Assembly: GCA_965261475.1 (NCBI GenBank)
Contig: OZ253454.1
Location: 1,378,001-1,442,000, forward strand
Length of the DNA: 64,000 nucleotides
Source: a bacterium
GTDB taxonomy: Bacteria; SAR324; XYD2-FULL-50-16; G965216635
Reading direction: 5' to 3'
In this document: positions 1 through 47,128 of the stretch, in pieces
Numbering within the stretch: the stretch's first letter is position 1
Layout: each line of letters starts with the position of its first letter
Notes under the pieces: generated by a model
What the model was told of the DNA's origin: nothing
The model's input: the letters and a program-made list of their open reading frames with translations, nothing else
The model's database searches: none
Position numbers and translations under genes: made by a program

Positions 1-297
1 CCAGCAATGCCTATTATGCCTGGTGTTTTAATTATTGAAGCATTAGCACAAACTGCTGCTTTAATTGGGGGCAAAAGAAAAAAAGGAGAATTATTTATGA
101 TTGTAGGAGTTGATAAATTTAAATTTCAAGCTCAAGTTATACCGGGAGATCAAATTATTTGCACCGCAGAAATATTAAAATTTAAATTAAATATGTTTTT
201 CTTAAATGCCAAAGCAATTGTTCGAAAACCAGATGGTACAAACCACCCTTGCGCATCTGGTGTTTTAAAATGTGCTAAAGTGGATACCATAAAATAA
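1..297 (+). CDS. fabZ: 3-hydroxyacyl-ACP dehydratase (FabZ-like hotdog fold), C-terminal fragment; 5' end lies before the window
   Basis: Frame is open from base 1 (P-A-M-P-I-M-P-G-V-L-I-I-E-A-L-A-Q). The PGVLIIEALAQ segment matches the conserved FabZ/FabA hotdog active-site region. Confidence 0.6.
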   Translation, partial: PAMPIMPGVLIIEALAQTAALIGGKRKKGELFMIVGVDKFKFQAQVIPGDQIICTAEILKFKLNMFFLNAKAIVRKPDGTNHPCASGVLKCAKVDTIK

Positions 298-307
298 ACA
301 CTTTACT

Positions 308-1297: not shown

Positions 1298-1299
1298 CT

Positions 1300-3993
1300 A
1301 TGAAAAAAATTATAAGATTTACAGCAGTTTATTTTTTCTTGTTTGTGATTATTCTGTATTTAGGTATAGAATATCAGGCGCAAAATTATTATCCCAAGTC
1401 CGATCAAATTGCCGATGTACTACAGAGACTCAAAAAAGATTATGTAGACTCTCAAAGACTAGAGCCTTACACAATGTTAGAGGCTACTTTAGAAAATCTT
1501 GCCCGTCATATACCTCCTGTTGTATTACAAGAACTTAAAGGCAGTCCTTTTTCTGCTGTTACTATTCAAGTAGATAAAGCAAAAAAAGAATTTATTATTC
1601 CAAAACTAAAAAATTTAGCAGACTTAGCAAACACCTTACAAAAAATAGTTATCTATATCAAACAAAACCTCCCAAAAGAAAAAGATTTAAAAAACATAGA
1701 CTATGTAGCTATTAATGGATTTCTATCTGTTTTAGACCCTTATACTTCATTATTAGTCCCTGAAGTTTATACAGAATTTCGTGAAGATACAGATGGGAAT
1801 TATAGCGGAGTAGGAATGTATATTGGAATTAGAGACACAAAATTACAGGTTATTTCACCTATCTTTAACTCTCCTGCCTATAAAGCAGGTATAAAAGCTA
1901 AAGATATTATTTTGCAAATCAACGAAGAATCTACAATTAACATGAGCACTGGTACTGCTTCTTCTAAAATCAAAGGATTAGAGGGTACAAAAGTAAATTT
2001 ACTAATCCAAAGAAAAGAATTTAATAAACCAAAAAATTTTGCAATAACTAGAGCGCGTATATCATTAACAAGTGCTAATGCTTTAGAGCTAAAAACAAAA
2101 GAAGGAAGAATTGGCTATCTATCTATTTCCCGATTTCACCAAAAAACAGCTAAAGAAGTAGAGACAGCACTAAAAAAACTGAAAATAAATTATTCTGACT
2201 TTCAAGGAATTATTTTAGATTTAAGAAATAATCCAGGAGGCATCTTACAACAAGCAGTCAAAGTCAGTGATAAGTTTCTAGCACAAGGCAGGATTGTAAC
2301 CACCGCTGGGATATCTAACAAACCAAGAATTGCTTACAACGCTAGGGGAAGTAATAGCATCATAAATACTCCTATTATCATCTTAATGAATGGAGGCTCT
2401 GCTTCGGCAGCAGAAATTCTTGGCGCTGCACTTAAACAAAATAAAAGAGCCATTGTTTTAGGGACAACAAGCTTCGGCAAAGGCTCCGTACAACAATTAA
2501 GACAATTTCAAGATGGTTCTGCTTTAAAACTAACCATTGCTAAATATCTTACTCCTAATAATAACTCTTTGCACTCCATAGGTATTACTCCGCATATTGA
2601 GGTAAACCCTTGGATTATTGACGGCAATAGCATCAATATTATTAACAACAAGGAGTTAAATGCTAACAAAAAAGATAAATTTGCAGAGTGGGGAGGCGTT
2701 CCAGATAAACCAATTCGTTCATTTAACTATCTATTTGATAAAGATTTTCAACACAATATTTTTAGCACTAGCGAGCAAAAACAAGACATTGCAGGATTTG
2801 ATATAGATGGTTTAAAAAAGGATTATTTACTTTATTTTGCTAGCAAAATACTAGAAACTAGTAAAGTAAAAGATTTACCAACACTATCGCAAACAGTAAT
2901 TGCGACTACAAAATTAGAGGAGCAAATACAAAATACCAAACTTAAAAAAAAATTAGAAGAGATTGGTATTTCTTGGAGACAAAAACTACAAGGAACTAGC
3001 GAAGTAGAAGTTAAATTTTGGGTAGAAAAAAAAAGACAAAACAACGAAGCTTGTTTGCAAGCCAGAAAGGATCGCATACAAGCTGGTGATGAAATTTATC
3101 TTTGTGTAGTATTAAAAAATACTACCAAACAAGAAACTATAAGATTACAAGCAACTGGAAATTCTCCATATCCTATTTTTAATAAAAAACAATTCGTCTT
3201 TGGCAATATTCCTGCTGGGAAGACAAAAAAATGGTTTGTCCCTGTCAATATTCCTGCCTACTTTGCTAATGCAGACATTCCTTTTACTATTAAGCTCCTA
3301 GACTTTGAAGAAAAAGAGATTATTGCTCATCAATTCTTCTTTAATATTAACCAAATTCCTCAACCTCAATTTCAGTATTCATTGAAAGCTTATAGCAAAA
3401 CTAGCAAAATAGAAGCTCCTAATTCTATAAAATTAGATATACAAATTTTTAATAAATCAAATGTAGATTCTGGTAAATTAAATATATCGCTTAAAAATGG
3501 AGAAGGTAAAAAAATTTTTCTTACAGCTGCTAAAGACACGGTAAATAGTTTAGCAAAAAAAAATCAGAAAAAATCAGAATTTAAATTTGATTTAAAACAT
3601 TCTATTCCCGATGGGGCAATTGATTTATCATTTTCTTTATTGGACTCCAAATATAACAAACATATTACTCATAACTTTACTATTCCTTATGGAGCTGAAG
3701 GAACGCAAACCATCACTAATTCTGCACCTAGTATTAACATCAAAAGTTATCCTCTACAAACCAAAAAAGAAAAAATTACTTTAGAATTTACTAGTGAAGA
3801 TGACAAAAAAATAAAAGATTTTTATATCTTTGCCAATGACAAAAAAGAATTTTATCGTAGTTTTGGCAAACAAAAAATTTTACATGATATTGCAATTAAG
3901 TTAAAAACAGGTTTAAATAAAATAATATTTTTTAGTCGTGATAATTATGATGTCACTACCTTGCAACAAATTTATATTTATAGACAAAACTAA
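1300..3993 (+). CDS. Tail-specific (C-terminal processing) protease, S41 family, with a roughly 450-aa Lys/Asn-rich C-terminal extension
   Basis: 897 aa with N-terminal signal/TM segment, a PDZ-like segment (GVGMYIGIRD...SPAYKAGIKAKDIIL) and the S41 catalytic region (ILDLRNNPGG, MNGGSASAAEILG, GTTSFGKGSVQ). The C-terminal half is low-complexity with no recognisable catalytic motif. Confidence 0.7.
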   Translation: MKKIIRFTAVYFFLFVIILYLGIEYQAQNYYPKSDQIADVLQRLKKDYVDSQRLEPYTMLEATLENLARHIPPVVLQELKGSPFSAVTIQVDKAKKEFIIPKLKNLADLANTLQKIVIYIKQNLPKEKDLKNIDYVAINGFLSVLDPYTSLLVPEVYTEFREDTDGNYSGVGMYIGIRDTKLQVISPIFNSPAYKAGIKAKDIILQINEESTINMSTGTASSKIKGLEGTKVNLLIQRKEFNKPKNFAITRARISLTSANALELKTKEGRIGYLSISRFHQKTAKEVETALKKLKINYSDFQGIILDLRNNPGGILQQAVKVSDKFLAQGRIVTTAGISNKPRIAYNARGSNSIINTPIIILMNGGSASAAEILGAALKQNKRAIVLGTTSFGKGSVQQLRQFQDGSALKLTIAKYLTPNNNSLHSIGITPHIEVNPWIIDGNSINIINNKELNANKKDKFAEWGGVPDKPIRSFNYLFDKDFQHNIFSTSEQKQDIAGFDIDGLKKDYLLYFASKILETSKVKDLPTLSQTVIATTKLEEQIQNTKLKKKLEEIGISWRQKLQGTSEVEVKFWVEKKRQNNEACLQARKDRIQAGDEIYLCVVLKNTTKQETIRLQATGNSPYPIFNKKQFVFGNIPAGKTKKWFVPVNIPAYFANADIPFTIKLLDFEEKEIIAHQFFFNINQIPQPQFQYSLKAYSKTSKIEAPNSIKLDIQIFNKSNVDSGKLNISLKNGEGKKIFLTAAKDTVNSLAKKNQKKSEFKFDLKHSIPDGAIDLSFSLLDSKYNKHITHNFTIPYGAEGTQTITNSAPSINIKSYPLQTKKEKITLEFTSEDDKKIKDFYIFANDKKEFYRSFGKQKILHDIAIKLKTGLNKIIFFSRDNYDVTTLQQIYIYRQN

Positions 3994-4052
3994 CGCACCA
4001 AATACCACTGCAACAAATAACCTATCAACTGCTTGAATATAAATAATATGAT

Positions 4053-4466
4053 TTATTTTTTTCTGCGAGTGAATAGATGCAATAAACTAGTAACTACAAT
4101 CAAAAAGGAGCTATAAAAATGGATAAAATTCCAAAGAGGAACAAAATCTAAAGTATAAAAAAAGAGCATCAAACCACTATAAAAATTGATAATAAAAACT
4201 AATAGATAGATTACACCACTCCACGCCGATGATTTTTTTTGATGCTTGCTTTGTAAACTAAAACTATCTTGATATTTTTTGATATGTTGCAAAATATACA
4301 AAAAAAAGAAAGCAACAAAAAAAAATCCTAAGATAGTATGAAAAATACCTAAAAATAAACTAGTTCGCCAAAAATAGATTGTAAAACCACTCACCAAAAG
4401 TAAAACAAAAAATAATTTTAGTAACTGATACATTAACAAAGATGGAATTCTTTTTAAGATAGCCAA
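4053..4466 (-). CDS. Hypothetical small integral membrane protein
   Basis: 137-aa ORF with several hydrophobic helices, 9 bp downstream of the ClC gene on the same strand; no recognisable motif. Confidence 0.3.
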   Translation of the reverse strand: MAILKRIPSLLMYQLLKLFFVLLLVSGFTIYFWRTSLFLGIFHTILGFFFVAFFFLYILQHIKKYQDSFSLQSKHQKKSSAWSGVIYLLVFIINFYSGLMLFFYTLDFVPLWNFIHFYSSFLIVVTSLLHLFTRRKK

Positions 4467-4475
4467 GATAACAAA

Positions 4476-6296
4476 CTAGTTTTGTTGTTTTATGAAACCT
4501 TTGATAGATAAAACACTGTTGTACTGGTCTATGATGTCTCTATGAGAAATAAGCCCAATAATTTTTTTATCGTTGTTTTTTGAAACAACTGGCAGAATAT
4601 CCAAATCTTTAATACTAAACAAATTTAAGGCTTGAGAGAGATCTGCATCTTCCTTGATAGTAATTAAATTAGATTCCATAATATCTTTCATAATGATAAT
4701 ATTTTCTAAACCTTCTTCCAAAATAAGTTCTTGTATCATAGAAAAAGATACAGCTCCTGTGAGCTCTTTTTTAGCATTTAAAATAGGAAAATAATGTGTT
4801 TTTTGCTTTGGAATTTGTTTTAGTAGAGTATCAAAGCTATCTTTTTCTCTCAAACTTGTAAAATCAGAATGCAAGACCTGTTTAACAGTTATAGATTGTA
4901 AAACACTTAATTCTCGTCCTTCCTCTAAGCGAATACCTTCTTTAGCAAGTTTTAGCGTGTCTATAGACTCTCCTAATAAAGTTTTAATGCTGACAGTACC
5001 AATAATAGAGGCAAACATTACAGGAATAATGACATGGTAGTCATTGGTTAGTTCAAAAAGCAAAAAAATAGCAGTTAAAGGCGCAAGAGTCGTAGCAGCT
5101 AAAAACGAGCCCATTCCAATCAACGCGTAAGAGCCTATTTCTATATTTAAATCTGCAAACAAGAGTTGTACTATGCTACCAAACAAAGCTCCAAAAGCAG
5201 CTCCAATAACTAATGATGGGGCTAAAATACCACCTACATTGCCAGAGCCTAAGGTAATAGAGGTTGCTATTATTTTTAATATTACTAGCAAACCCAAAAA
5301 CCAGAGAGTATAAGAGTTATTGTGTAAAAGTTGAATCATTAAATTATACCCATCTCCTAGTACTTCAAATTGCATTAACCCTAGACAACCTACTAAAAAA
5401 GCACCTAGTATAGGTTTAGCTAATCTAGGAATTTTGAGTTTTTGAAAAAAATCACTTGTAGCATAAAAAATGCGTATAAAAAAATAAGCAAGAAACCCAA
5501 TAAATACACCAAGCAAACAATAAAAAATAAATTCTTCGTAAGTAATGCTGTAATTTAAATTACCAAAGACTGGAGCATCTGAATAATAAGCACGAGAAAT
5601 AGCCGTTGCTACACCTGAAGCTACAACTAATGCACCAAAAGATTCTAATTGAAATTTACCTAGCATAATCACTTCTTGTGCGAAAAGCACGCCTGCTAAA
5701 GGAGCATTAAATTGTGCTGCAACTGCTGCTGCTGAGCCTGTAGCAATTAACACTTGCAGACGGTTAGCACTCATAGAAAATATTCTCCCTACTTTAGAGC
5801 CTACAGCTCCTCCTATTTGAGCAATAGGACCTTCTACTCCAGCTGATCCTCCAGTAGAAATAACAATGGATGCTGTAACCATTTTTGCTAAAATTTCTCT
5901 AGTCCTAATCAACCCGCCTTGCAAATGTATAGATTTCAAAAAATCTGGCATAGTGTAGCCACCTACAATAATTTTTGGAAATAATTTCATTAACACCACC
6001 AACAAAATAGCACCTGCAACAGGTATTACAGGTAAAGCAAACCAGCCAATATTATCCGTCAACCATTGGTAGCTAACCTCAAACGCAATATGATGTAAAA
6101 AATCTAAGATGTTACGAAAAATAACAGAAAGAAAACCCGCAATAACTCCCGTGAGTACTGCCATTAATAGCAAAGAATTGGTATGACTGAGGAATAGTTT
6201 GCGATATAAGGTTTGAAAAATTTCTTGAATTTTAAAATATCGTAATCGCTTGATATGATTTTTAAGTTCTTTTAATCTTTTCCTTTCAATAGACAT
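4476..6296 (-). CDS. ClC-family voltage-gated chloride channel / H+-Cl- antiporter with C-terminal CBS domain pair
   Basis: 606 aa, multi-helix membrane domain with ClC-like selectivity segments (GSAGVEGP, GGILAPSL) followed by a soluble C-terminal region typical of tandem CBS domains. Confidence 0.7.
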   Translation of the reverse strand: MSIERKRLKELKNHIKRLRYFKIQEIFQTLYRKLFLSHTNSLLLMAVLTGVIAGFLSVIFRNILDFLHHIAFEVSYQWLTDNIGWFALPVIPVAGAILLVVLMKLFPKIIVGGYTMPDFLKSIHLQGGLIRTREILAKMVTASIVISTGGSAGVEGPIAQIGGAVGSKVGRIFSMSANRLQVLIATGSAAAVAAQFNAPLAGVLFAQEVIMLGKFQLESFGALVVASGVATAISRAYYSDAPVFGNLNYSITYEEFIFYCLLGVFIGFLAYFFIRIFYATSDFFQKLKIPRLAKPILGAFLVGCLGLMQFEVLGDGYNLMIQLLHNNSYTLWFLGLLVILKIIATSITLGSGNVGGILAPSLVIGAAFGALFGSIVQLLFADLNIEIGSYALIGMGSFLAATTLAPLTAIFLLFELTNDYHVIIPVMFASIIGTVSIKTLLGESIDTLKLAKEGIRLEEGRELSVLQSITVKQVLHSDFTSLREKDSFDTLLKQIPKQKTHYFPILNAKKELTGAVSFSMIQELILEEGLENIIIMKDIMESNLITIKEDADLSQALNLFSIKDLDILPVVSKNNDKKIIGLISHRDIIDQYNSVLSIKGFIKQQN

Positions 6297-26770: not shown

Positions 26771-29700
26771 TTAGTCTACTGTTTCTTCGGAAATAAATTT
26801 TTTATCTGTAATATATTTTGCTTCCGTATAATCTGTTTGTGCCATGTTGTCTACAATCTCATAATCATGCTCTTTAGTATTATAATGAAAACCAGTTCCT
26901 ACTGGAATTAAACGACCTAAAATAACATTTTCTTTTGGTCCTCTAAAATAATCAATTTTACCTTCAGCAGCGCTAGCAGTAAGTACTTTTGTAGTTTCCT
27001 GAAAGGAAGCTGCAGAAATAAAAGATTCTGTACTCAAAGATGCCTGCATAATACCAAGCAGCACTGGCTTTGCTTCCGCTTTTCTTTTTCCCTCAGATTC
27101 CAATCTCTTATTCTCCGCTCCAAATAAGTGTTTAAATATTTTTTTACCTTCTAGAAAGTTAGAATCTCCTGTTTCTGTAATTTCTACTTTTTTTAGCATA
27201 TGCGTTACAATAACCTCTACATGTTTATCGTTGATTTTTACACCTTGCATTCTATAGATTTCTAGCACTTCATTTACTAAATATCGTTGCAGAGCGACTA
27301 ACCCTTTAATTTTCAATATATCATGAGGATTTTGCACTCCGTCGGTTAAAAGATCCCCTGCTTTGATAATCTCGTCATCCAGGACACGGATAAAATCTCC
27401 TCGATTGATTAAATAGCTCTTTGATTCGCCCACATCAGGATGAATAATAATTTTCTTTTTTCTACGTGCATTCTCTCCAATCTCTACTTTTCCTGAAATT
27501 TCTGATATTTGACAAGGATTTTTAGGAACGCGTGCCTCAAATAAATCAACAACTCTAGGCAAGCCACCTGTAATATCTTTGGTTTTAGCAGATTCCCTAG
27601 GAATTTTAGCTAAAATATCGCCTGCTTTAATTTTATCGCCGTCTCTTACTACTAGTTCAGAACGCACAGGTAAATCAAAATCTTTACGCCAACTCCCATC
27701 TTTTTTAACCACTCTTTTTCCTTTATCATCAACAAGTCTAATAGATGGTTTTAAATCATATTCATAATTTTCTACAATTACCGCTCTAGAAATTCCTGTA
27801 TTATCGTCTGTTTCTACAACCATACTTTTGTTTTCTATAATATCACAAAATTGTACTATACCAACTTCATTAGAAAGAATAGGTACAGAAAATGGATCCC
27901 ATTCAGAAATAGTATCTCCTATTTTTATCTCATCGTTGTGTTTAAAAAATATTTTTGCACCTAATGGTAATTTTAACCTATCTACATCGTAACCTTCATC
28001 ATTAACAATACTGACCTCTGAATTTTGATCTACCACAACTTGTACATTATCTTTGTTGATTACAGTATTAACTTTATCTAGAATAATTTTACCTGGTTTT
28101 TGACAATCCCAAGAAGTTTCTTCAATTTTACTAGAGGCAGTCCCTCCAATATGAAATGTGCGCATAGTTAATTGAGTACCAGGCTCCCCAATAGATTGAG
28201 CGGCAATAATTCCTACAGCCTCACCGATGCTAACCATTTTACCTCTTGCTAAATCTCTGCCGTAACACAACACACAAAACCCTCTTTCAGCCTCACATGT
28301 CAATGGAGAACGTACAGCTACAGAAGTTATTAACGATTTATCAATAGCAACTATATTATTTTCATCAAACATAGTACCTTGTTTTACTAACAATTCTTTG
28401 GTGTAAGGATGTAACACATCCTCAGCAGCAATTCTTCCCAAAATTCTTTCTCCTATTCTTTCAATAATTTCTCCATTTTCTATTAAAGCTTCTATAATAA
28501 ATTTATTGCTTGTACCACAATCTCTAACACTAATCACGCTATCTTGAGCAACATCTACAAGTTTTCTTGTCAAATATCCAGAACGCGCAGTTTTTAAAGC
28601 TGTATCTGCTAATCCTTTTCTTGCTCCATGTGTAGAAATAAAATACTGCTGAGAATTTAAACCTTCTCTAAAATTTACAGTGATTGGAGTCTCAATAATT
28701 GCTCCACTAGGCTTTGCCATCAATCCTCTCATTCCGCAAAGCTGTTTGTTTTGATTAGTACTACCTCTTGCTCCAGAATCTGCCATAGCAAAAATAGGAT
28801 TCATTTGCATCATACCGTCTACTTCTCTTTCTTTAGATAAAATATCTAACATTCGATTTGCAATATCTTCCGTAGTCAAAGACCATAAATTAATTACCCT
28901 ATTATACCTTTCATTATCTGTAATAATACCCTCTTCGTGCTGTCTTTGAATTTTGAGTACTTCTTTTTCTGTTTTCTTCACAAGTTTGTCTTTTTCGCTT
29001 GGAATAGTCATATCTGTAATAGCTATTGAGAAGCCTGCTATCGTAGCATATTTAAAGCCTAAATCCTTAAGTTTATCTAATATATCTACTGTAACTACAT
29101 TACCTGCAAAACGATAACAAAGGTCCACAAGATTTTCGATATCTTTTTGCTTGAGCACCTTATTAATTGTTTCAAAACTTATACTCTTAGGAAAAACATC
29201 GTATAAAATCACTCTACCAGCTGTAGTGTCATAAATTTTATCTTCAATACGGACTTTAATTATTGCTTGTAAATCAACAAACTCATGTTCATAAGCTGCA
29301 ATGACTTGTAAAATACTAGAAAATATTTTTCCTTCACCTTTTCTTTTCGGAAAACTTTTAGACATCCAATAAATACCTAAAACCATATCTTTTGTTGGTA
29401 TCATAATAGGCTTGCCAGTAGCTGGTGATAAAATATTATTATGCGCCATCATTAACATTTTAGCTTCTGTTTGAGCTTCTATACTCAATGGAATATGAAC
29501 TGCCATTTGATCGCCATCAAAATCCGCATTAAAAGCAGTACAAACCAAAGGGTGTAATTGAATTGCTTTTTCTGCAATTAGCTTAATCTCAAAAGCTTGA
29601 ATTCCTAGACGATGCAAAGTAGGAGCTCTGTTTAGTAGCACAGGATAGCCTCTAGTAACATTTTCTAACGCTTTCCAAATTAGTGGATCATCTGTCTCCA

Positions 29701-30889
29701 ACATTCTCTTAGCTGCTCTAATAGTAGACGCATAGTCGTGATTTAGTAAATAACCTAGTACAAACGGCTTAAATAACTCTAAAGCCATTTTTTTAGGAAT
29801 ACCACATTCGTTAAGTTTTAAATTAGGTCCTACAACTATGACAGTTCTTGCTGAATAATCCACTCGTTTACCTAGTAAATTTTGCCTAAATCTACCATAT
29901 TTACCTCGTAAATTATCACTCAAAGATTTTAGAGGTCTGCCGTTAGCACCCAAAATAGCCCTAGCACTACGAGTATTATCAAATAAAGAATCTACAGATT
30001 CCTGTAACATTCTTTTTTCGTTTTTTACAATAATATCAGGTGCATTTAACTCTATCAATCGTTTGAGACGATTATTTCTATGAATCACTCTACGATACAA
30101 ATCATTCAAATCACTAGTTGCAAATTTTCCTCCGTCTAACGCCACCAGAGGGCGTAAATCAGGGCTAATTACTGGCAGAACAGTTAAAATCATATTCGAC
30201 ATTTTCCCTCCAGATCTACGAAAAGAATCTAAAACTTCAAACCTTCTTGTAAAGTTTTTTCTTTTCATTTCTGATTTACATTCTTTAATTTCTATTTTGA
30301 GTTGCTCAATTATCTGCTCAATATCAAGATTATCTAGAGTTTCTTTAATAGCTTCTGCGCCCATTCCAGCTTCAAGATCTTCGTCTGCATAGTCATGTTT
30401 TTCATAATCTTCTTTACTAATTAACTCTCCGATCTTTAGAGAAGTGCTTCCTGCATCAAAAACAATATAAGATTCAAAATGCAAAACTAACTCTACATCC
30501 TTCAGGCTTAAATCTAGAGCTATCGCTAGTAAACTAGGTGCTCTTTTTAAAAACCAGCTATGAGCAATAGGTACACAAAGATTGATATGACCCAATCTTT
30601 CTCTACGTACCTTAGACTCAATAACTTGTACACCACACTTTTCACAAGTAATGTCTCGGTGCTTCATTTTCTTATATTTTCCACAAACACACTCGTAATC
30701 CACTACGGGACCAAAAATTCTTCCACAAAATAAACCATCTCTTTCTGGTTTATTTGTTCTATAATTGATAGTTTCAGAATTCTTTACTTCTCCGTGAGAC
30801 CACTCCAAAATTTTTTCTGCAGAAACCAAATAAAGTTTTGCCGAATTATAAAACTGGGGGTCATCTTTTTCACTAAATGTTTTTTTCAA
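26771..30889 (-). CDS. rpoC: DNA-directed RNA polymerase subunit beta'
   Basis: 1372 aa; N-terminal zinc-binding region (CVCGKY...CEKCGV), NADFDGD active site and the rest of the conserved beta' core. Confidence 0.95.
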   Translation of the reverse strand: MKKTFSEKDDPQFYNSAKLYLVSAEKILEWSHGEVKNSETINYRTNKPERDGLFCGRIFGPVVDYECVCGKYKKMKHRDITCEKCGVQVIESKVRRERLGHINLCVPIAHSWFLKRAPSLLAIALDLSLKDVELVLHFESYIVFDAGSTSLKIGELISKEDYEKHDYADEDLEAGMGAEAIKETLDNLDIEQIIEQLKIEIKECKSEMKRKNFTRRFEVLDSFRRSGGKMSNMILTVLPVISPDLRPLVALDGGKFATSDLNDLYRRVIHRNNRLKRLIELNAPDIIVKNEKRMLQESVDSLFDNTRSARAILGANGRPLKSLSDNLRGKYGRFRQNLLGKRVDYSARTVIVVGPNLKLNECGIPKKMALELFKPFVLGYLLNHDYASTIRAAKRMLETDDPLIWKALENVTRGYPVLLNRAPTLHRLGIQAFEIKLIAEKAIQLHPLVCTAFNADFDGDQMAVHIPLSIEAQTEAKMLMMAHNNILSPATGKPIMIPTKDMVLGIYWMSKSFPKRKGEGKIFSSILQVIAAYEHEFVDLQAIIKVRIEDKIYDTTAGRVILYDVFPKSISFETINKVLKQKDIENLVDLCYRFAGNVVTVDILDKLKDLGFKYATIAGFSIAITDMTIPSEKDKLVKKTEKEVLKIQRQHEEGIITDNERYNRVINLWSLTTEDIANRMLDILSKEREVDGMMQMNPIFAMADSGARGSTNQNKQLCGMRGLMAKPSGAIIETPITVNFREGLNSQQYFISTHGARKGLADTALKTARSGYLTRKLVDVAQDSVISVRDCGTSNKFIIEALIENGEIIERIGERILGRIAAEDVLHPYTKELLVKQGTMFDENNIVAIDKSLITSVAVRSPLTCEAERGFCVLCYGRDLARGKMVSIGEAVGIIAAQSIGEPGTQLTMRTFHIGGTASSKIEETSWDCQKPGKIILDKVNTVINKDNVQVVVDQNSEVSIVNDEGYDVDRLKLPLGAKIFFKHNDEIKIGDTISEWDPFSVPILSNEVGIVQFCDIIENKSMVVETDDNTGISRAVIVENYEYDLKPSIRLVDDKGKRVVKKDGSWRKDFDLPVRSELVVRDGDKIKAGDILAKIPRESAKTKDITGGLPRVVDLFEARVPKNPCQISEISGKVEIGENARRKKKIIIHPDVGESKSYLINRGDFIRVLDDEIIKAGDLLTDGVQNPHDILKIKGLVALQRYLVNEVLEIYRMQGVKINDKHVEVIVTHMLKKVEITETGDSNFLEGKKIFKHLFGAENKRLESEGKRKAEAKPVLLGIMQASLSTESFISAASFQETTKVLTASAAEGKIDYFRGPKENVILGRLIPVGTGFHYNTKEHDYEIVDNMAQTDYTEAKYITDKKFISEETVD

Positions 30890-30917
30890 CTTATACTCCC
30901 TAAATAAAATTAAACAA

Positions 30918-33900
30918 CTAAATATCTTCCATAATTTCTTGAGCTTTAGCCCTAGAGTCCCCTACTAGCTCTAAATCTATACACAAAGATCGTAACTCAT
31001 TAACTAAGACTTTAAAGGATTCTGGGATCCCTGATTCGTAATGCAAATCTCCTTTGACAATAGCTTCGTACACCTTATTCCTGCCAAAAATATCATCAGA
31101 TTTTACAGTTAATAACTCCTTTAAAATAAAAGCTGCTCCGTAAGCCTCCAAAGCCCATACTTCCATTTCGCCAAATCTTTGTCCACCAAAATGAGATTTT
31201 CCTCCTAAAGGCTGTTGAGTAACTAAAGAATAGGGTCCAGTCGACCTAGCATGTAATTTATCATCAACCAAATGGTAAAGTTTACACATATACTTATAGC
31301 CAATTGTTACTTTTTGCTTGAATTTTTCTCCTGTTTGCCCATCGTACAAAGCGACTTTTCCAGAATAATCCATACCACAAAGATCCATAAGTCTACGTAT
31401 ATCAGTTTCTTTTGCTCCATCAAAAACAGGAGTGGCAAAATAAACACCATTTCTTAGTTTATTAAAGAAGACAACTAATCCATCGTCATCTAAACTGTCT
31501 AAATACTGATTTATATAATTTGATTGATAAATTTCTTTGACAAATTTTTTGATTTCATCATAAGACACCATAGTTGTTAGCATTTGATCAATTTTATCAC
31601 CCAAATGTTTAGAAATCATGCCAAGATGGGTTTCTAACAACTGTCCAATATTCATACGAGATGGTACGCCCAACGGATTTAAGATCAAATCAATAGGTTC
31701 TCCATCCTCTGTATGTGGCATATCCTCAACGGGTAAAATCTTAGAAACAACACCTTTATTCCCGTGTCTGCCAGACATTTTATCACCTACAGAAAGTTTT
31801 CTTTTCATAGCAATATAAACCTTAACAATCTGATTAACTCCCTGAGGCAAATCTTCTAGTCTTCTTTTATTCTCTATTTGATTACGATATTTGCTATTAA
31901 CTGTTTCTGCTTGTTTCTGCATTTTTTGCAGTAGTGCAACTAATTCTTTGTTTTTTACTTCGTTTTCTACACAAATACCGATAAAACTCTCAATAGGCAA
32001 TTTTAATAGTTCATCTACATTGATGAGAGATTTTTTAGCAAGCACAACCTTTTGAGTTTTGGTATTAACAATATCATATTTTAATTTTTCACCCTCTAGG
32101 AGATTTTTGTGTTTATTGATAAAGTTGCTCTTTAGAATAAAAAGCTCATCTTGATTGTCTTTATCAATATTGCTAATCATCTCTTCTTCAATTTTAATAG
32201 TAGAAGATTTTTTTTCTACGCCTCTTCTATTAAAAACTTTAACATCCATAACTATACCTCTTACTCCTTGTGGAACTTTTAGAGAGCTATCTCTAATATC
32301 AGCAGCTTTATCTCCAAAAATTGCCCGTAATAATTTTTCTTCAGGGTTAAGCTGAGATTCTGTTTTAGGCGTAGTTTTACCAACCAAAATATCTCCTGTT
32401 TTTACATAACATCCAATACGTACAATTCCAGATTCGTCTAAATTTCTTAACCTGTACTCGCTAGAAGACGGGACATCTCGGGTAATATGCTCTCTACCAA
32501 TTTTTGTATCTCTAGCAGATGTTTCAAATTTTTCTATATGCACGGAAGTAAAAACATTATTGTGTAGCAATCTTTCGCTAACTACCAAAGAATCTTCATA
32601 ATTAAAACCATTCCAAGACATAAAAGCTACCTTAACATTTTTTCCAAGAGCTAATTCTCCAGACTCACAAGCTGGACCATTAGCAATAATTTGTCCTTTT
32701 TGAATTTTATCGCCTTTTGCTACTAATGGAATTTGATTGATACAAGTATTTTGATTGGTTCTATCATATTTTTGCATCCTATAAATAACAATGTCAAAAG
32801 GATTATCCTTAGAAACCGTGTTTTCCATTATAATTTTAGTAGCATCTACAAAACGCACTACTCCGCTTTTTTCAGCAAGTACACAAACACCAGTAGTTTG
32901 TGCTATCAATGCTTCCATACCAGTTCCTACAAAAGGAGCTTCAGGAATAGCCAAGGGAACAGCTTGCCGTTGCATATTAGAGCCCATTAAAGCGCGATTT
33001 GCATCGTCATGTTCCAAAAATGGAATTAAGGAAGCAGCCACAGAAACGAGTTGGTGTGGCGATAAATCAATCCATTCTGCCCACTCTCTAGGCTGTGATT
33101 TAAACTCACTATTTTTCCTCAGAGTGATCATTTCTTTAATAAATCTTTCTTTTTTATCTAATAAAGCGTTAGATTGAGCAATATAAAAATTACTATCATC
33201 TAAGGCGGACATGTACTTAACTTCATTAGTTAATTGCATATCTTTGACCTTTCTATAAGGAGTTTCAATAAATCCAAACTCATCAAGTTTGGCATAAATA
33301 GTAAAACTAGACATAAGTCCAATACTTGGTCCTTCTGGAGTTTCAATCGGACAAATCCTTCCGTAATGCGAAGGATGAACGTCTCTCACCTCAAACCCAG
33401 CTCTATCTCGACTCAATCCGCCAGGACCCAAAGCACTCAATCTTCTCTTATGCGTCATTTCAGACAGAGGATTGGTTTGCTCCATAAATTGAGACAATTG
33501 ATTAGTAGCAAAAAAGTCATGTATAACACCAGTAATCAATTTTACATTAAACAATTCATTCAAACTGGTATTTTCCTCTCCCAAGAAAACCATTTTTTCT
33601 TTGATATTTTTTTCTATACGAAACATTCCTTTGTTAAAACATTGACCTAACAGCTCTCCTACATCTTTGACTCTTCTATTTTTTAAATTATCTATGTCAT
33701 CTAGCACCATTTTACCTTTCCTTAAAAGAAAAAGACGCGCGACTGTCTCAAAAAGATCATCATGATCTAATGTGACTTTATCTATAGATTGGTTCTTACC
33801 AAATTTTTTATTAAATTGCATTCTTCCTATTTTAGAAAGGCTATAAAATTGCTCATCAAATAAAAAAGATTTAACAAAACTCTTGCTTTTTTCTAAATTA

Positions 33901-35048
33901 ACAATGGAAGTTTTTAATTTTTTATAAATTTCAATTGCTGCATCGTCTATTGAAGTAATTTTATCCTGCAATATAGTGTTTCTCAAAGCAGCATCCATAG
34001 TGTCGCTTTCTAGTAAAAAATAATTTATATTTTTTACTTTGTTTGCTAAGAATTTTTCTAAAAGCTCTAGCGTAATAATTTCATTGAATTTAGCAATGGT
34101 TTCTCCGTTTGCACTAATAACATCCTTGAGTATAGCAGCTCCTAAAAAATCTTCTTTTGAAACCTCTATTAGTTTTTTGCGAATATTTTGGAATTTTTCT
34201 ACATCTCCAGCTTTCCATCTATCTCCTTTGAGTCCAATTACTTTATAGGTTGCCCCATCTAAAATATCCTGAGTAATTTTAGTATTTTCTTTAATTTTTC
34301 CATCAAAATTCTTGTAAAATTTTTTATCAGACAAAATTAATTCTCCTACAGGGTAAAATCTTTCTATTATTTCTGGGCAAGTATAGCCTAGCGCTTGAAA
34401 AAAAGTAGATACTAAGAGCTTCTTTTTTCTATCTATTTTAACATTTAAAATATCCTTAGAATCAAATTCAAAATCTAACCAAGAGCCTCGTTGCGGGATA
34501 ATAGCGGCTATAAAAACTTGTTTGCGACTAACTACTGGTTTTTTATTTTCTAAGAAAAATACTCCCGGAGAGCGATGAAGTTGGCTAACAATTACCCTCT
34601 CTGTGCCATTGACAATAAAATATCCCGAAGGTGTCATTAAAGGAAAATTGCCAAAAAATATTTCATCTTCCTTAACTTCCTGTATTTTAAGATTAGCAGT
34701 AAGATGTTCTTGTGCTAACTCATAGGTAATCAATCTAAGTTTGATCCAGATTGGAATAGTGTAGGTAGCACCTCTGTTTTTACATTCTTCACGAGAATAT
34801 CGTGGCTCTGCTAGTCTATAAGAAATATATTCTATCTTAAATCTTGAGTTAGAATTAGCAATAGGAAAGACATTATTAAAAATAGCTTCCATGCCAATTT
34901 TTGCTCTATCAGCAGGCTCTTTGCTTCGTTGTATAAATCCCTCATAGGCTTCTGTTTGTACGCTTACAAGGTTTGGAGAGCTGGTTATATTTTTTATTTT
35001 ACTAAAATCAACCCTGATGCGCAAAGCATTTTCTATGTTTTGTATCAT
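30918..35048 (-). CDS. rpoB: DNA-directed RNA polymerase subunit beta
   Basis: 1376 aa; conserved beta-subunit blocks throughout (GPGGL...RDVHPSHYGRICPIETPEGP, NMQRQAVPL, GQRFGEMEVWALEAYGAA). Confidence 0.95.
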   Translation of the reverse strand: MIQNIENALRIRVDFSKIKNITSSPNLVSVQTEAYEGFIQRSKEPADRAKIGMEAIFNNVFPIANSNSRFKIEYISYRLAEPRYSREECKNRGATYTIPIWIKLRLITYELAQEHLTANLKIQEVKEDEIFFGNFPLMTPSGYFIVNGTERVIVSQLHRSPGVFFLENKKPVVSRKQVFIAAIIPQRGSWLDFEFDSKDILNVKIDRKKKLLVSTFFQALGYTCPEIIERFYPVGELILSDKKFYKNFDGKIKENTKITQDILDGATYKVIGLKGDRWKAGDVEKFQNIRKKLIEVSKEDFLGAAILKDVISANGETIAKFNEIITLELLEKFLANKVKNINYFLLESDTMDAALRNTILQDKITSIDDAAIEIYKKLKTSIVNLEKSKSFVKSFLFDEQFYSLSKIGRMQFNKKFGKNQSIDKVTLDHDDLFETVARLFLLRKGKMVLDDIDNLKNRRVKDVGELLGQCFNKGMFRIEKNIKEKMVFLGEENTSLNELFNVKLITGVIHDFFATNQLSQFMEQTNPLSEMTHKRRLSALGPGGLSRDRAGFEVRDVHPSHYGRICPIETPEGPSIGLMSSFTIYAKLDEFGFIETPYRKVKDMQLTNEVKYMSALDDSNFYIAQSNALLDKKERFIKEMITLRKNSEFKSQPREWAEWIDLSPHQLVSVAASLIPFLEHDDANRALMGSNMQRQAVPLAIPEAPFVGTGMEALIAQTTGVCVLAEKSGVVRFVDATKIIMENTVSKDNPFDIVIYRMQKYDRTNQNTCINQIPLVAKGDKIQKGQIIANGPACESGELALGKNVKVAFMSWNGFNYEDSLVVSERLLHNNVFTSVHIEKFETSARDTKIGREHITRDVPSSSEYRLRNLDESGIVRIGCYVKTGDILVGKTTPKTESQLNPEEKLLRAIFGDKAADIRDSSLKVPQGVRGIVMDVKVFNRRGVEKKSSTIKIEEEMISNIDKDNQDELFILKSNFINKHKNLLEGEKLKYDIVNTKTQKVVLAKKSLINVDELLKLPIESFIGICVENEVKNKELVALLQKMQKQAETVNSKYRNQIENKRRLEDLPQGVNQIVKVYIAMKRKLSVGDKMSGRHGNKGVVSKILPVEDMPHTEDGEPIDLILNPLGVPSRMNIGQLLETHLGMISKHLGDKIDQMLTTMVSYDEIKKFVKEIYQSNYINQYLDSLDDDGLVVFFNKLRNGVYFATPVFDGAKETDIRRLMDLCGMDYSGKVALYDGQTGEKFKQKVTIGYKYMCKLYHLVDDKLHARSTGPYSLVTQQPLGGKSHFGGQRFGEMEVWALEAYGAAFILKELLTVKSDDIFGRNKVYEAIVKGDLHYESGIPESFKVLVNELRSLCIDLELVGDSRAKAQEIMEDI

Positions 35049-42393: not shown

Positions 42394-43359
42394 TTAAGGT
42401 AAAAAATTATTTTCCTGCATCCACTGATCGCTGTAGAGTTTATTAACGTATCTGTCACCAGAGTCACATAGTACAATCAAAGCTTTTTGCTTATGCGAAA
42501 TCTTTGTTAAAAATTCTAATGCACCAAATACCGTCATACCAGAAGAACCTCCTGCATAAATTCCTTCTTTTTGCAGCATTTGTCTCGTCATCAAAAAAGC
42601 ATCTTTATCTGAAACTTCTACCCAAGAATCGATTACAGAAAAATCAAAATTCTCAGGAATAAAATCGGCTCCTACTCCTTCTAAAATATAAGGTTTAGCT
42701 TCTGTTATTTTTCCAGTTTTTGCGTATTCTGACAAGATAGAGCCTCTGACGTCCACAGCAATAGTGTGAATTTTATTCCCTAGTTGCTCTTTTAAAAATT
42801 GAGAGCTACCACTAACTAGACCTCCCGTGCCTGCTGGAAAAAAAACTAGATCTAGCTCTCCTTTTGTTTGCTGAAAAATTTCTGGTCCTGTAGTTTTGTA
42901 ATGAGCTTCGCGGTTGAGAATGTCGTTGTATTGATCAATATAAAGCGAATTTTCTGTTTCTTGAGCAATAAGTTTAGCTACACTATAATAAGAACGTGAG
43001 TCAGTCGGCTCTACATCAGACGGACAAATAACTACTTCTGCTCCAAAATTTTTTAAAAAGGCAATTTTATCTGGCGATTGTTTATCACTAATAGTAAAAA
43101 TACAGTGAAACTTATTGACCGCTGCCCACAAAGCCATACCAATGCCTGTGTTACCAGAAGTGCAAGCAACAATAGTGCCTCCTTTTTTTAGTTTGCCTGT
43201 AGCTACTGCCTCATCTAGCATATATTTAGCAATTCTGTCTTTGTAAGAGCCACCAGGATTTAAATATTCCAATTTAACATAAATATCGTGGGGCAAATCG
43301 CTCGTTATATTTTGTAACTCTACAATTGGGGTATTACCAATAGCGTCTAGTATATTCAT
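42394..43359 (-). CDS. Cysteine synthase / cystathionine beta-synthase-like PLP enzyme (CysK/MccA-type)
   Basis: 321 aa; PLP-lysine motif (GGSYKDR), glycine loop (TSGNTGIGMA), GTGGL. Confidence 0.7.
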   Translation of the reverse strand: MNILDAIGNTPIVELQNITSDLPHDIYVKLEYLNPGGSYKDRIAKYMLDEAVATGKLKKGGTIVACTSGNTGIGMALWAAVNKFHCIFTISDKQSPDKIAFLKNFGAEVVICPSDVEPTDSRSYYSVAKLIAQETENSLYIDQYNDILNREAHYKTTGPEIFQQTKGELDLVFFPAGTGGLVSGSSQFLKEQLGNKIHTIAVDVRGSILSEYAKTGKITEAKPYILEGVGADFIPENFDFSVIDSWVEVSDKDAFLMTRQMLQKEGIYAGGSSGMTVFGALEFLTKISHKQKALIVLCDSGDRYVNKLYSDQWMQENNFLP

Positions 43360-43492
43360 CTAAAAATTATCTTTGCCTGTGCCAAGACTACATCTTTTGA
43401 AAGAAAATTGGAATATAAATTTTTATTCAAATTGATTTTACATTATTTTTATCTATAGCATATAAATGCTAAATGCAATCACCATCTACTGA

Positions 43493-44594
43493 TTAGTTAT
43501 TTTGTAGCAAATTAGCTTGAATAAAATTATCAAGCTCACCATCTAAAACAGCATCAGTATTACTGGTTTCTTCACCACTGCGGTGATCTTTGACCATTTG
43601 ATAGGGTTGTAATACATAACTGCGGACCTGGCTACCCCAGCTAATCTCTTTTTTTTCATTTTCCTTTTGCTCTTTTTCTTTTTTTTGTTCTTCTAATTGT
43701 CTTTGTACTAGAGCAGACTTTAAAATTTTCATAGCTGTAGCTTTATTTTTGTGTTGCGAGCGCTCGTTTTGACATTGGGCAGTGATACCTGTTGGTAGAT
43801 GCACAATCCGCACCGCCGAATCAGTAGTGTTAACATGCTGTCCACCAGCTCCTGTAGCACGATAGGTATCTATTCTAAGCTCAGAATCTTTAATTTCTAC
43901 TTCAAGATCTTCCTTGACTTCCGGAAAAACAAATACAGACGCAAAGGAGGTATGTCTTTTTTTATTACTATCAAAAGGAGAAATTCGTACCAAACGATGC
44001 ACTCCTATTTCTTGTTTTAGTTTACCATAAGCAAATTTGCCATGTACTTCAAAAGTTATAGATTTAAATCCTGCTTCTTCCCCTGAAGTACTTGCTAACA
44101 CACTAAAATAAAAAAAATTTTTTTCTGACCACCGAGTATACATTCTAAACAGTATCTTAACCCAATCCATAGCTTCCGTACCTCCAGACCCAGAATTAAT
44201 TTGTATGATAGCGTTATTGGGATCATGAGGGTTATGAAGATAATAAGCAATTTCTCCAGCAATGATTTTTTTGGAAAAACCTCGTACCATACTATCTAGC
44301 TCTTTCATAATTTGTGCATCAAAAACTTCTTGACACAACGCAAAAGCAGCTAAAATATCACCTTCTAAAACACAAAGCTCGTCCCAAGATTGTTGCTCCT
44401 GTTTTAAATCAGAAATTTGTTTAAGAATTTTATTTTGCTTAATCCTCGGCAGTAACCAAAAAGATTCTTGTTTTATTTGCTTTTGTAATTCTTGTAAAGC
44501 ATTCTCTACGCCCTTGGAGTCAAAGATACCTCCTCAAAGCCAATTTTCTTGCTTTTGACTTTTCAAAAATTACTTTTAAATCTTCTAACTTCAC
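43493..44594 (-). CDS. prfB: Peptide chain release factor 2, expressed through a programmed +1 ribosomal frameshift
   Basis: Frame 0 runs from GTG at 44594 through 24 codons to ...LRRYL, then in-frame TGA at 44522-44520. The +1 frame (GAC at 44521 to stop at 43493) encodes the rest of RF2 with the SPF... and GGQHVNTTDSAVR motifs. Combined product is about 366 aa; the ORF track only shows the 3' part (43493-44338). Confidence 0.8.
44519..44534 (-). other. prfB programmed +1 frameshift cassette: internal SD-like AGGAGG, then UAU CUU UGA C
   Basis: Minus-strand sequence AGG AGG TAT CTT TGA C read directly; matches the canonical RF2 autoregulatory frameshift site. Confidence 0.75.
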
Positions 44595-45142
44595 TGTGAT
44601 ATGTAGTTTAGAATATCAGAAAATTTTGCAATAATCCTAATATTTTTTATACTTTTAGCTTCTTGTTGAGACTGTGCGCCATATCCTGTTAATACTAGTG
44701 CAGCTTGGCAACCAATTTTACTCGCTACTTGCATATCTATTATTTTGTCGCCAATGAGCCAGCTATTTTTTATGTCTATAGCATATTTTTTTTTTGCCTG
44801 TTCTATAAGACCAATTTTAGGTTTTCTGCACTCACAATCTATGTTATAAGGGGGATTACCTAGTGGATGATGAGGGCAATAAAAACAATCGTCTAATTTG
44901 ACCTTAAACTCTGCAAGCAAACGGTTAATTGTTTGATAAGCACTTTTTACAAAATTTTCTGAAATAATTCCCTTTGCTACAGCAGATTGATTAGTAAGTA
45001 GTAATAATAAAAAACCTTTTTGTTGGAGGGCTTTTAACGTAGTTGCGACACCCTCAAAAAGTACAATATTTGCTAAATTATTGAGGTAGTGCTTTTCTAC
45101 TATGAGAGTACCATCTCTATCCAAAAAAACAGCAGGTTGCAT
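44591..45142 (-). CDS. gmhB: D-glycero-D-manno-heptose 1,7-bisphosphate phosphatase (HAD-IIIA, GmhB-like)
   Basis: 183 aa; HAD motif I (FLDRDGTL), zinc-binding CxH...CxC insert (CPHH...CECRKP), motif III (GDK..D). Stop codon overlaps the prfB GTG start (GTGA). Confidence 0.6.
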   Translation of the reverse strand: MQPAVFLDRDGTLIVEKHYLNNLANIVLFEGVATTLKALQQKGFLLLLLTNQSAVAKGIISENFVKSAYQTINRLLAEFKVKLDDCFYCPHHPLGNPPYNIDCECRKPKIGLIEQAKKKYAIDIKNSWLIGDKIIDMQVASKIGCQAALVLTGYGAQSQQEAKSIKNIRIIAKFSDILNYISQ

Positions 45143-45213
45143 AAATTTGTTTTTCTTTGGTAAGCTTTTTATGTTCTCTAAAAGAATAAATCATTTTTTA
45201 GAAAAAACCAATT

Positions 45214-46626
45214 ATGCTTGCAAATTTTGACTTTAGAGATAAACAAACAAAAAATATATGCCTACACATTTTAGATCTTGTGCGTCAAAATAATGGCAAG
45301 GGTTTTTTAGTTGGTGGGTGTGTACGAGATGCTTTAGTAGGAATTAGTGCTACAGACATAGATATAGAAGTCTATAACATCAAGTTAGCTAAGCTGATTC
45401 GGCTTCTTAAAGAGCACTTTGCGATTAACTTTGTCGGTAAAAGTTTTGGTGTTATCAAACTCAATCACTACCCTATAGATATTACTATTCCAAGAAAAGA
45501 AGTCAAAACAGGTCAAGGTTACAAGGGTTTTGATATTGAAACCGACCATCTCTTATCACCAAAAGAAGCTTGTGCTAGAAGAGATTTTACTATCAATGCT
45601 ATTTTATTTAACCCCCTAGAAAATACATTTATAGATATTTACAACGGCAAAAAAGATTTACAACAATATATTCTAAGACATACTACAGATAAATTTTCTG
45701 AAGATCCTCTACGCGTTTTACGGGCAATGCAATTCATTGCAAGATTTAAATTACAAATAGCACCAGAGAGTTTAAAGCTTTGTAAAAATATTGCAATCGA
45801 AAATCTTTCATCAGAGCGTATATTTGAAGAGTGGAAAAAATTAATTCTCAAAGGAAAAAAAATTTCTTGGGGTTTAAATTTTTTAAAACAATCTAATTGG
45901 TTAAAATATTTTCCAGAGCTACAAGCTCTAGACGGTTGTCCTCAATACAAAAAATGGCATCCAGAGGGAGATGTTTTTACTCATACAGGTTTTTGTATGG
46001 ATGCCTTTGTCATAGAAAGACATTTATGTCATAGCTCAAAAGAGAATTTGTTAGTAGGTCTTGGAGTCTTGTGTCACGACTTCGGCAAACCTCTAACTAC
46101 AAAAACTCATCTAGATGGAACAATCACTTCTCATCAACACGACATCCAAGGAGTAATTCCTACCATAAATTTTTTAAGCCGTCTTACCAATCAAAAAGAC
46201 ATACTTCATAAAGTTGCTTTACTAGTTCGCTATCATATGATTCCAAAAGAGCTCTATATCAATCATGCCAAAGAATCGGCTGTACTAGGATTATCCAAAA
46301 AGGCAGAGAATATTCAAAGATTGCTACGCGTTTGCAAAGCAGACAAAAATGGTAAAGGCTCAAAATACGAATGGAATTATCCCGTAGCAGATTGGCTACT
46401 ATCAAAGGCAGAAAAATTACAAGTTACAAAAACTCCACCACCACCAATTTTAAAAGGAAGACACTTAATAGCAATAGGGCTAAAGCCTAGCAAAAAATTT
46501 TCTGAACTACTAAATTTTGTCTATCAAGCTCAGCTAGATAAAAAAATTCATTCCGTATCAGAAGGAATTGCTTTTTTAAGAAAAGAAATAAAGTTTAAAA
46601 ACCAATTCCAAAACCTAAATAAATAG
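45214..46626 (+). CDS. cca: CCA-adding tRNA nucleotidyltransferase with HD domain
   Basis: 470 aa; head-domain motif GGCVRDALVG...DIDIEV and a downstream HD motif (HDFGK). Confidence 0.7.
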   Translation: MLANFDFRDKQTKNICLHILDLVRQNNGKGFLVGGCVRDALVGISATDIDIEVYNIKLAKLIRLLKEHFAINFVGKSFGVIKLNHYPIDITIPRKEVKTGQGYKGFDIETDHLLSPKEACARRDFTINAILFNPLENTFIDIYNGKKDLQQYILRHTTDKFSEDPLRVLRAMQFIARFKLQIAPESLKLCKNIAIENLSSERIFEEWKKLILKGKKISWGLNFLKQSNWLKYFPELQALDGCPQYKKWHPEGDVFTHTGFCMDAFVIERHLCHSSKENLLVGLGVLCHDFGKPLTTKTHLDGTITSHQHDIQGVIPTINFLSRLTNQKDILHKVALLVRYHMIPKELYINHAKESAVLGLSKKAENIQRLLRVCKADKNGKGSKYEWNYPVADWLLSKAEKLQVTKTPPPPILKGRHLIAIGLKPSKKFSELLNFVYQAQLDKKIHSVSEGIAFLRKEIKFKNQFQNLNK

Positions 46627-47128
46627 CATTAGAAGCAGATGCTAAATTTACTCTGCCATCAGCGTTGCTAAAAGTAACTTTTTCTCCAACATCTACTCTA
46701 TACTCTACGCCGACTTGGACAACAATAACAGAAAGATTTAAACCAGCAGAAATCCATGTGCCATTATACTTTTGTGTATCTTTTTGATCTAAAAGATTAT
46801 TGTAGGTGATTTTATTATTACTAACACCCAAACCAACAAAAGGTTTAACAATAGCAAAAAACTCCTTGCGGATACCAAAACTAGTTTCTTCAATCCGAAT
46901 AGCTTCTTTTTGTTTAGTTTGAACGCCAGCTTGCCAATCCGCTAAAAACTCTATTCCTGTAAAAGGAATAGCAAGGTCAAAACTCAAGCCATAATAATCT
47001 ACAAAGGTAATATTCTTCGAAGGGCTATCCTCAAAAGATTTACTTCCGTATTTTAATTTTATACCGGCAAAAGCAGTCCCAGAAATACTAAAACATAAAA
47101 AAATAATCAGTATCGTTCTTTTTAACAT
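46595..47128 (-). CDS. Small outer-membrane beta-barrel protein
   Basis: 177 aa; signal peptide, alternating amphipathic beta-strand pattern, C-terminal aromatic-terminal motif (...YLGFGIGF). Confidence 0.5.
   Translation of the reverse strand: MLKRTILIIFLCFSISGTAFAGIKLKYGSKSFEDSPSKNITFVDYYGLSFDLAIPFTGIEFLADWQAGVQTKQKEAIRIEETSFGIRKEFFAIVKPFVGLGVSNNKITYNNLLDQKDTQKYNGTWISAGLNLSVIVVQVGVEYRVDVGEKVTFSNADGRVNLASASNAIYLGFGIGF

Follow-up and report, generated by a model that had tools for sequence, protein, structure and literature searches.

The closest described system is the prfB gene of Escherichia coli, and the autoregulatory frameshift by which RF2 is made from such genes was described in the 1980s. 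In E. coli prfB, the abundance of RF2 sets the competition at an in-frame UGA-C, and an upstream Shine-Dalgarno (SD)-like element that pairs with the 3′ tail of the 16S rRNA stimulates the slip. The cassette of E. coli K-12 reads AGGGGG-TAT-CTT-TGA-C, and the RefSeq entry for the gene (b2891) is a CDS joined from two pieces.

The distribution of this system was surveyed in 12,753 RefSeq species genomes in a study published in 2025, which found the premature stop motif in 64% of the genomes and gave the consensus as AGGGGG, a 3-nt spacer, CTTT, and TGA-C (PMC12421855). In that survey, retention of the frameshift went with low GC content and low TGA usage, and genomes that are truly without the frameshift were also without the CTTTGA and SD elements (PMC12421855). 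It has also been documented that the SD element of prfB is retained in SD-blind bacteria irrespective of genome-wide SD usage, that negative FSD values are found in Bacteroidia and Verrucomicrobiales, and that in Flavobacterium johnsoniae, the one SD-blind organism studied so far, the frameshifting of prfB is inefficient (about 7%) and SD-independent under laboratory conditions (PMC10798248).

Here we describe a locus in the window (the whole stretch of DNA that was analysed, 64 kb in length) that is almost certainly an intact prfB gene, translated by means of the classical +1 programmed ribosomal frameshift through which RF2 regulates its own synthesis. It belongs to the same family as E. coli prfB, and its cassette stands at the same early position, with the same TAT, CTT-T, TGA, and C and the same 3-nt spacing, differing from the E. 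coli version by one base (AGGAGG). The two loci differ in the length of the leader, which has 24 codons in the window compared to 25 in E. coli (the latter is established knowledge, with which the extra columns of the alignment agree), in a GTG start that overlaps a HAD phosphatase gene in the window only, in a downstream neighbour that, unlike that of E. coli, is not lysS, and in a genomic background that appears SD-poor, unlike that of E. coli. The mechanism is already known, and the locus is the textbook RF2 frameshift in one more genome. The window has a GC content of 32.6%, and TGA ends 5 of its 43 long ORFs.

Anatomy of the prfB locus and its shift cassette

The preliminary description had placed a GTG start at 44594, 24 codons, and an in-frame UGA within AGG-AGG-UAU-CUU-UGA-C, and each of these elements was located to the base (Table 1). 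The leader begins at 44594-44592 on the minus strand and runs for 24 sense codons (VKLEDLKVIFEKSKARKLALRRYL) until the in-frame TGA, which is enclosed by the 16-nt cassette AGGAGG-TAT-CTT-TGA-C at 44534-44519. The SD-like element had been said to lie at the usual spacing, and it was found that this spacing is 3 nt, as in E. coli and in the published consensus. When T44522 is skipped, GAC at 44521-44519 is read in the +1 frame, which is then open until the TAA at 43495-43493. The joined product is therefore 24 + 342 = 366 aa in length, in agreement with the earlier estimate of about 366 aa, and the residues around the join are LALRRYL-DSKGVENALQELQK. The cassette 16-mer is present as a single copy in the window, even when 2 mismatches are allowed, compared to an expectation of 0.04 from shuffles, and it is not a chance match because the codon it occupies corresponds to the one at which other RF2 genes have their frameshift site.

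As had been pointed out from the ORF track, a mechanical list of ORFs contains only a truncated form of the gene, with 281 aa (43493..44338, TTG start), beside the 24-aa leader (44520..44594). A TGA 4 codons before the shift site closes the +1 frame, whose first canonical start, TTG 44338, is 61 codons downstream of that site. Therefore, ordinary initiation cannot enter the body of RF2 without the loss of conserved sequence. A second CTTTGA, which is out of frame, lies 12 nt further upstream, within GGCTTTGAGG (44534-44543); this second copy is the source of the +1-frame stop at 44536-44534 and is formed, probably by coincidence, by the Leu-Arg codons TTG-AGG.

Table 1. Features of the prfB locus and its upstream neighbour, in window positions. 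L081 and L082 are two near-identical assemblies of the locus; 9fy1_8 is an RF2 chain of solved structure.
Feature	Position	Strand	Basis
GmhB-like HAD-IIIA phosphatase gene, 183 aa, upstream of prfB	44591..45142	-	passes TIGR01656 and TIGR01662 only
Complete prfB, two frame segments joined by a +1 shift, 366 aa	43493..44594	-	sequence and join, TIGR00020, Pfam, 9fy1_8 alignment
GTGA, overlap of the prfB start with the stop of the upstream HAD-IIIA phosphatase gene	44591..44594	-	sequence; likewise in L081 and L082
Frame-0 leader, GTG and 23 codons, the last being the P-site codon CTT (Leu24)	44523..44594	-	ORF; start backed by homology
+1-frame TGA closing the body frame upstream	44534..44536	-	frame scan
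Internal Shine-Dalgarno-like AGGAGG, 3 nt upstream of CTT	44529..44534	-	sequence, pairing energy, relatives, consensus
Spacer and E-site codon TAT (Tyr23)	44526..44528	-	sequence; identical in E. coli
Shift site CTT-TGA-C: slippery CTT-T, RF2-specific TGA 44522-44520, weak-context C 44519; Asp25 = GAC	44519..44525	-	conserved
+1-frame RF2 body, residues 25-366 and TAA	43493..44521	-	join, structure alignment, lineage alignment
SPF, residues 205-207, RF2 stop-codon recognition motif	43973..43981	-	invariant in lineage alignment
GGQ, residues 250-252, peptidyl-tRNA hydrolysis motif	43838..43846	-	invariant in lineage alignment

By analogy with E. coli prfB, ribosomes would initiate at GTG 44594 and read 24 codons, at which point the P site would be occupied by tRNA-Leu paired with CUU and the A site by UGA-C. 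Abundant RF2 would recognise the UGA and release a 24-residue peptide. With little RF2, the pause would be longer and the P-site tRNA could slip downstream by one base, exchanging its pairing with CUU for UUU; reading would then resume at GAC in the +1 frame and yield the full 366-aa factor. The AGGAGG element would be placed, as in E. coli, to pair with the 3′ tail of the 16S rRNA and to stimulate the shift. That the shift takes place in the host, how efficient it is, how RF2 feeds back on it, and what the SD-like element contributes are inferred from the knowledge of E. coli prfB.

No match was obtained with Rfam over the whole window at the gathering threshold, and a permissive Rfam search of 44300-44800 gave chance-level matches only (E above 3). 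Folding of the RNA from 44440-44600 gave z = -1.68, a level equalled by 13 of 200 shuffles, and so no significant structure was found in this region; this absence fits a type of frameshift that needs no structure downstream.

Family membership, conservation, and neighbourhood

The joined protein was evaluated against family models and solved structures. As a member of NCBIfam TIGR00020 (prfB), it scored 459.8 bits against a curated cutoff of 370, whereas it failed the RF1 models, with 255.5 and 252.2 bits compared to cutoffs of 400 and 423. The Pfam domains PCRF (PF03462, residues 30-220) and RF-1 (PF00472, residues 229-338) were found, and both the SPF and the GGQ motifs are intact in the joined product. 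The best match among solved structures was the RF2 chain 9fy1_8, which we take to be Bacillus subtilis RF2, aligned over its residues 1-361 with residues 1-362 of the window protein (E 2.5e-100); the next matches were the E. coli and Thermus RF2 chains. Residue 1 of the window RF2 was aligned with residue 1 of 9fy1_8, and there was no gap across the junction, where ...rryLDskg... lies over ...rgsLDles.... The two proteins have the same length of 366 aa and a Leu-Asp junction at residues 24-25, although they are clearly diverged, as indicated by the E value, and their genes have different genomic contexts. The alignment with RF2 that had been proposed as a check therefore establishes that the joined translation is colinear with RF2, and the sequence comparisons support the membership of the joined product in the prfB (RF2) family.

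The closest tier consists of two independent, near-identical assemblies (L081 and L082; ENA ERZ26693765 and ERZ26693861). Over 6.8 kb, 73 and 86 substitutions set them apart from the window, with no indel and with an identical leader and cassette. Within prfB, one assembly has 4 synonymous and 3 non-synonymous codon changes and the other has 6 of each kind, again with no indels. A middle tier consists of six relatives of the same lineage, with 59-73% protein identity over residues 86-366, and all of them have a 24-codon leader followed by TAT-CTT-TGA-C. These six relatives have an ATG start at the homologous position, 24 codons before the stop (MK-I/L-E...), which argues that GTG 44594 is the true start in the window. 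Across the lineage, the identity of residues 25-85, between the shift site and TTG 44338, was 28-49%, and the Tyr-Leu-Asp junction was invariant in the alignment. The shift site was thus present in 8 of 8 close or lineage loci.

The most distant tier was made up of 80 genomes among the matches listed, from many phyla and with 45-62% identity. It was found that 69 of these 80 have CTT-TGA at the homologous codon, with a G-rich hexamer 3 nt upstream of CTT; among these 69 listed genomes, the stop is followed by C in 56, and the commonest spacer codon is TAT (27 of 69). The remaining 11 of the 80 listed genomes have a single uninterrupted frame and are without the CTTTGA and SD elements. This distribution agrees with the published survey (PMC12421855). 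Conservation of CUU UGA C in relatives, which had been named as a further check, was therefore found both within the lineage and, for CTT-TGA, in most of the distant genomes listed. Taken together, the TIGR00020 score, the failed RF1 models, the colinear alignment, and the conserved site bear out the earlier interpretation that this is an intact prfB that needs a +1 frameshift at CUU-UGA-C.

One of the related contigs (L087, ERZ26869290:ctg324422) contains at 228-4862 a near-perfect foldback, with inverted arms of 1,367 nt (100%) and 590 nt (99%), in which HAD-prfB is duplicated in inverted orientation. This foldback most probably arose as a chimera in the assembly of long reads and does not reflect a real arrangement of the genes.

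The gene upstream of prfB had been called gmhB, but it is not a proven GmhB and is better described as a GmhB-like HAD-IIIA phosphatase. Its product scored 152.4 bits against the GmhB equivalog NF006506 (cutoff 178) and 133.4 bits against the subfamily model TIGR00213 (cutoff 149.6), reaching neither cutoff, and it passed only the HAD-IIIA and histidinol-phosphatase-domain models TIGR01656 (117 bits, cutoff 84) and TIGR01662 (105.6 bits, cutoff 44.6). A Cys-x-His ... Cys-x-Cys stretch (CPHH...CEC) is present in this minus-strand HAD-IIIA phosphatase. The overlap of the prfB GTG with the upstream stop codon as GTGA, which had also been described, was confirmed, and it is common to the window, L081, and L082 only; in four more distant relatives with the HAD gene upstream (L084-L087), an ATG follows the HAD stop by 3-8 nt without overlap. 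The gene order of CCA-adding enzyme (divergent), HAD, and prfB is kept in L081, L082, and L084-L087. Therefore, the tight linkage of HAD and prfB is conserved and the GTGA overlap is not. The HAD gene is probably co-transcribed with prfB, and the two may be translationally coupled, as had been suggested, with the GTGA overlap limited to the species cluster of the window.

A scan of 43200-45400 gave 8 promoter-like sites compared to 8.8 in shuffles, with no evidence that a promoter separates prfB from the HAD gene, although such a scan is weak in 33% GC DNA; no terminator-like site was found in the same region. The ORF of the CCA-adding enzyme (45214..46626, plus strand) and a convergent 177-aa ORF (46595..47128, minus strand) overlap at their 3′ ends by 32 nt (46595-46626). 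The 177-aa ORF has a signal-peptide-like N terminus, and the pair is also called in L081 and L082. No tRNA or tmRNA genes were found in the window (1-64000).

The frame break and its annotation

We considered whether an indel introduced by sequencing or assembly could account for the frame break, in which case the real gene would be one uninterrupted ORF. The source is apparently metagenome-derived, the related contigs come from long-read assemblies, which are prone to homopolymer indels, CTTT is a short run of T, and the contig L087 is clearly an assembly foldback. Against this, the break falls exactly inside the canonical 16-nt cassette and at the homologous codon, the same break is present in six relatives at 59-73% protein identity, and relatives that truly do not frameshift are also without the CTTTGA and SD elements. 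An indel error at the site, which the preliminary description had itself raised as an objection, is contradicted by L081 and L082, which keep identical cassettes and leaders despite their substitutions elsewhere. We consider an indel to be extremely improbable, and this reading is effectively refuted. It is just as hard to credit that prfB is a decaying pseudogene in a host that uses another release factor or a reassigned UGA. Such a view could draw on the premature stop seen when ORFs are read naively and on the truncated public gene calls, but no further stop interrupts the 342 codons of the +1 frame, the motifs for catalysis and for stop-codon recognition are preserved, and residues 86-366 are as well conserved across the lineage as given above. 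Furthermore, RF2 is needed, since the long ORFs of the window that end in TGA include the neighbour of prfB. UGA as a sense codon was also considered and rejected; frame 0 meets another stop 26 codons later.

If there were no frameshift, the locus could encode a 24-aa leader peptide and an RF2 initiated internally, either as 281 aa from TTG 44338 or as 271 aa from ATG 44308. Both of these starts exist, and the 271-aa form is in the public protein collection. However, the 61 conserved codons before TTG 44338, which are aligned to solved RF2, could not be translated without the shift, a start at residue 86 or 96 would drop the N-terminal part that aligns with solved RF2, and the start positions are not conserved, as the truncated calls of the relatives vary in length. 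There is therefore almost no chance that internal initiation accounts for the gene, and the +1 frameshift is the interpretation that we retain.

It had been expected that automated annotation might call the gene a pseudogene. This is not what was found: the gene is on record as a truncated call of 271 aa from ATG 44308, with 282 nt left uncalled, and an exact look-up of the joined 366-aa form and of the 281-aa form in the public protein collection returned neither. In the gene tables of L081 and L082, the HAD gene and the 271-aa call are likewise separated by 282 nt in which no gene is called (2719-3000 in both). The public RF2 calls of all the lineage relatives examined are N-terminally truncated, at 228-337 aa (proteins P0002, P0016-P0023, P0031, P0054, and P0108), so that the leader and the shift site fall in uncalled, 'intergenic' DNA. 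Annotation by the NCBI pipeline was good enough for the survey of 12,753 genomes (PMC12421855). The correct annotation of the window gene is a minus-strand CDS in two segments, 44594..44523 joined to 44521..43493 by ribosomal slippage.

The value of this result is practical, not conceptual, in that it is an annotation fix for an essential and intact gene. With truncated calls, the leader and as much as about 280 nt are not assigned to any gene, and completeness checks, RF2 phylogenies, and protein clustering that are built from such calls inherit the truncated sequences.

SD elements in the window and its lineage

The pairing of the cassette with an assumed canonical 16S rRNA 3′ tail was predicted to have an energy of -13.6 kcal/mol in the window, compared to -10.7 kcal/mol for the E. 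coli cassette. Across the lineage, the predicted values ranged from -13.6 down to -3.8 kcal/mol, the weaker cassettes including ATGGAG (-5.9 kcal/mol) and AAAGGT (-3.8 kcal/mol). SD usage at gene starts was evaluated for 45 genes of the window, which is without a 16S rRNA gene, and it was found that, with crudely assigned starts and an assumed canonical anti-SD, 6.7% of the 45 genes had pairing of -4 kcal/mol or stronger at -20..-1, compared to 11.1% of mock upstream windows and 18% of random 20-mers. The FSD-type value for the window was negative for the same 45 genes and the same assumed anti-SD, like the values published for Bacteroidia and Verrucomicrobiales (PMC10798248). In addition, only 2 of the 43 long ORFs have GGAG, GAGG, or AGGA at -20..-4, the regions upstream of the long ORFs are A/T-rich, and those of GroEL, DnaK, and RpoB have no SD (for example, the leaders of 16902 on the plus strand and of 54673 and 35048 on the minus strand). 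The hexamer AGGAGG is present in 27 copies in the window compared to 13.7 +/- 3.8 in dinucleotide shuffles, none of which reached 27. Therefore, internal SD-like hexamers are not avoided, being about twice as frequent as in shuffles.

The sole long ORF with a strong SD-like element is 26771..30889 (minus strand), in which ttagggagtataag, in the upstream stretch 30890-30909, precedes a crudely assigned TTG start, with a pairing energy of -8.4 kcal/mol. This ORF is presumed to be rpoC from its position after rpoB, the two lying within 26771-35048 of the window.

These data bear on whether the frameshift is helped by the SD-like element in this host. It could be that the ribosomes of the lineage are blind to SD elements, as in Bacteroidia, and that the frameshift proceeds without SD help, the AGGAGG being kept for Arg-Arg or for a condition-specific role. 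This would be in line with the rarity of pairing near starts relative to mock windows and random 20-mers, with the SD-less GroEL, DnaK, and RpoB leaders, with the over-representation of AGGAGG, with lineage relatives that keep the shift site while the SD element varies down to AAAGGT, and with the F. johnsoniae precedent (PMC10798248). On the other hand, the strongest possible pairing is found in the window and in its nearest relative L084, and L089 has AGGGGG at -12.6 kcal/mol, which suggests that some members of the lineage keep the element under selection; moreover, the sample is one of 45 genes with crudely assigned starts and an assumed anti-SD tail. We consider an SD-independent shift to be rather unlikely. 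In the classical model the SD-like element would stimulate the shift, although the inefficient, SD-independent shift of F. johnsoniae and the scant use of SD for initiation in the window mean that the stimulatory role of AGGAGG may not hold here.

F. johnsoniae and other Bacteroidia have almost no SD-led initiation and yet keep an SD-containing prfB cassette (PMC10798248), as appears to be the case in the window. In some Bacteroidia the SD degenerates while CTT-TGA-C stays, as is also the case in the lineage of the window, which is different from theirs. The window RpoB is 64-69% identical to that of four relatives, two of which are on contigs of 1.46 and 2.39 Mb (the proteins of the window itself are found on contigs of 1.55 and 1.60 Mb), and only about 50% identical to that of any named taxon, such as SAR324, "Deltaproteobacteria bacterium TL4", Thermodesulfobacteriota, and Binatia, the nearest named taxa being SAR324 and "Deltaproteobacteria bacterium TL4". 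The identities of RF2 are distributed in a similar way, in that named matches plateau at about 50% across several phyla.

It is conceivable, and we put it forward tentatively at somewhat less than an even chance, that a deep lineage of small AT-rich genomes (contigs of 1.46-2.39 Mb), with RpoB about 50% identical to anything named, has globally abandoned SD-led initiation. The SD-poor background is a lead and not a result, and the lineage may be the part that is new. If true, this would add another SD-less group to Bacteroidia, Verrucomicrobiales, and Cyanobiaceae, and the prfB cassette would be among the few places in which a perfect SD has survived. The role for which the anti-SD tail is kept would then seem to be regulation in the elongation phase, such as the frameshift, and not the selection of start sites.
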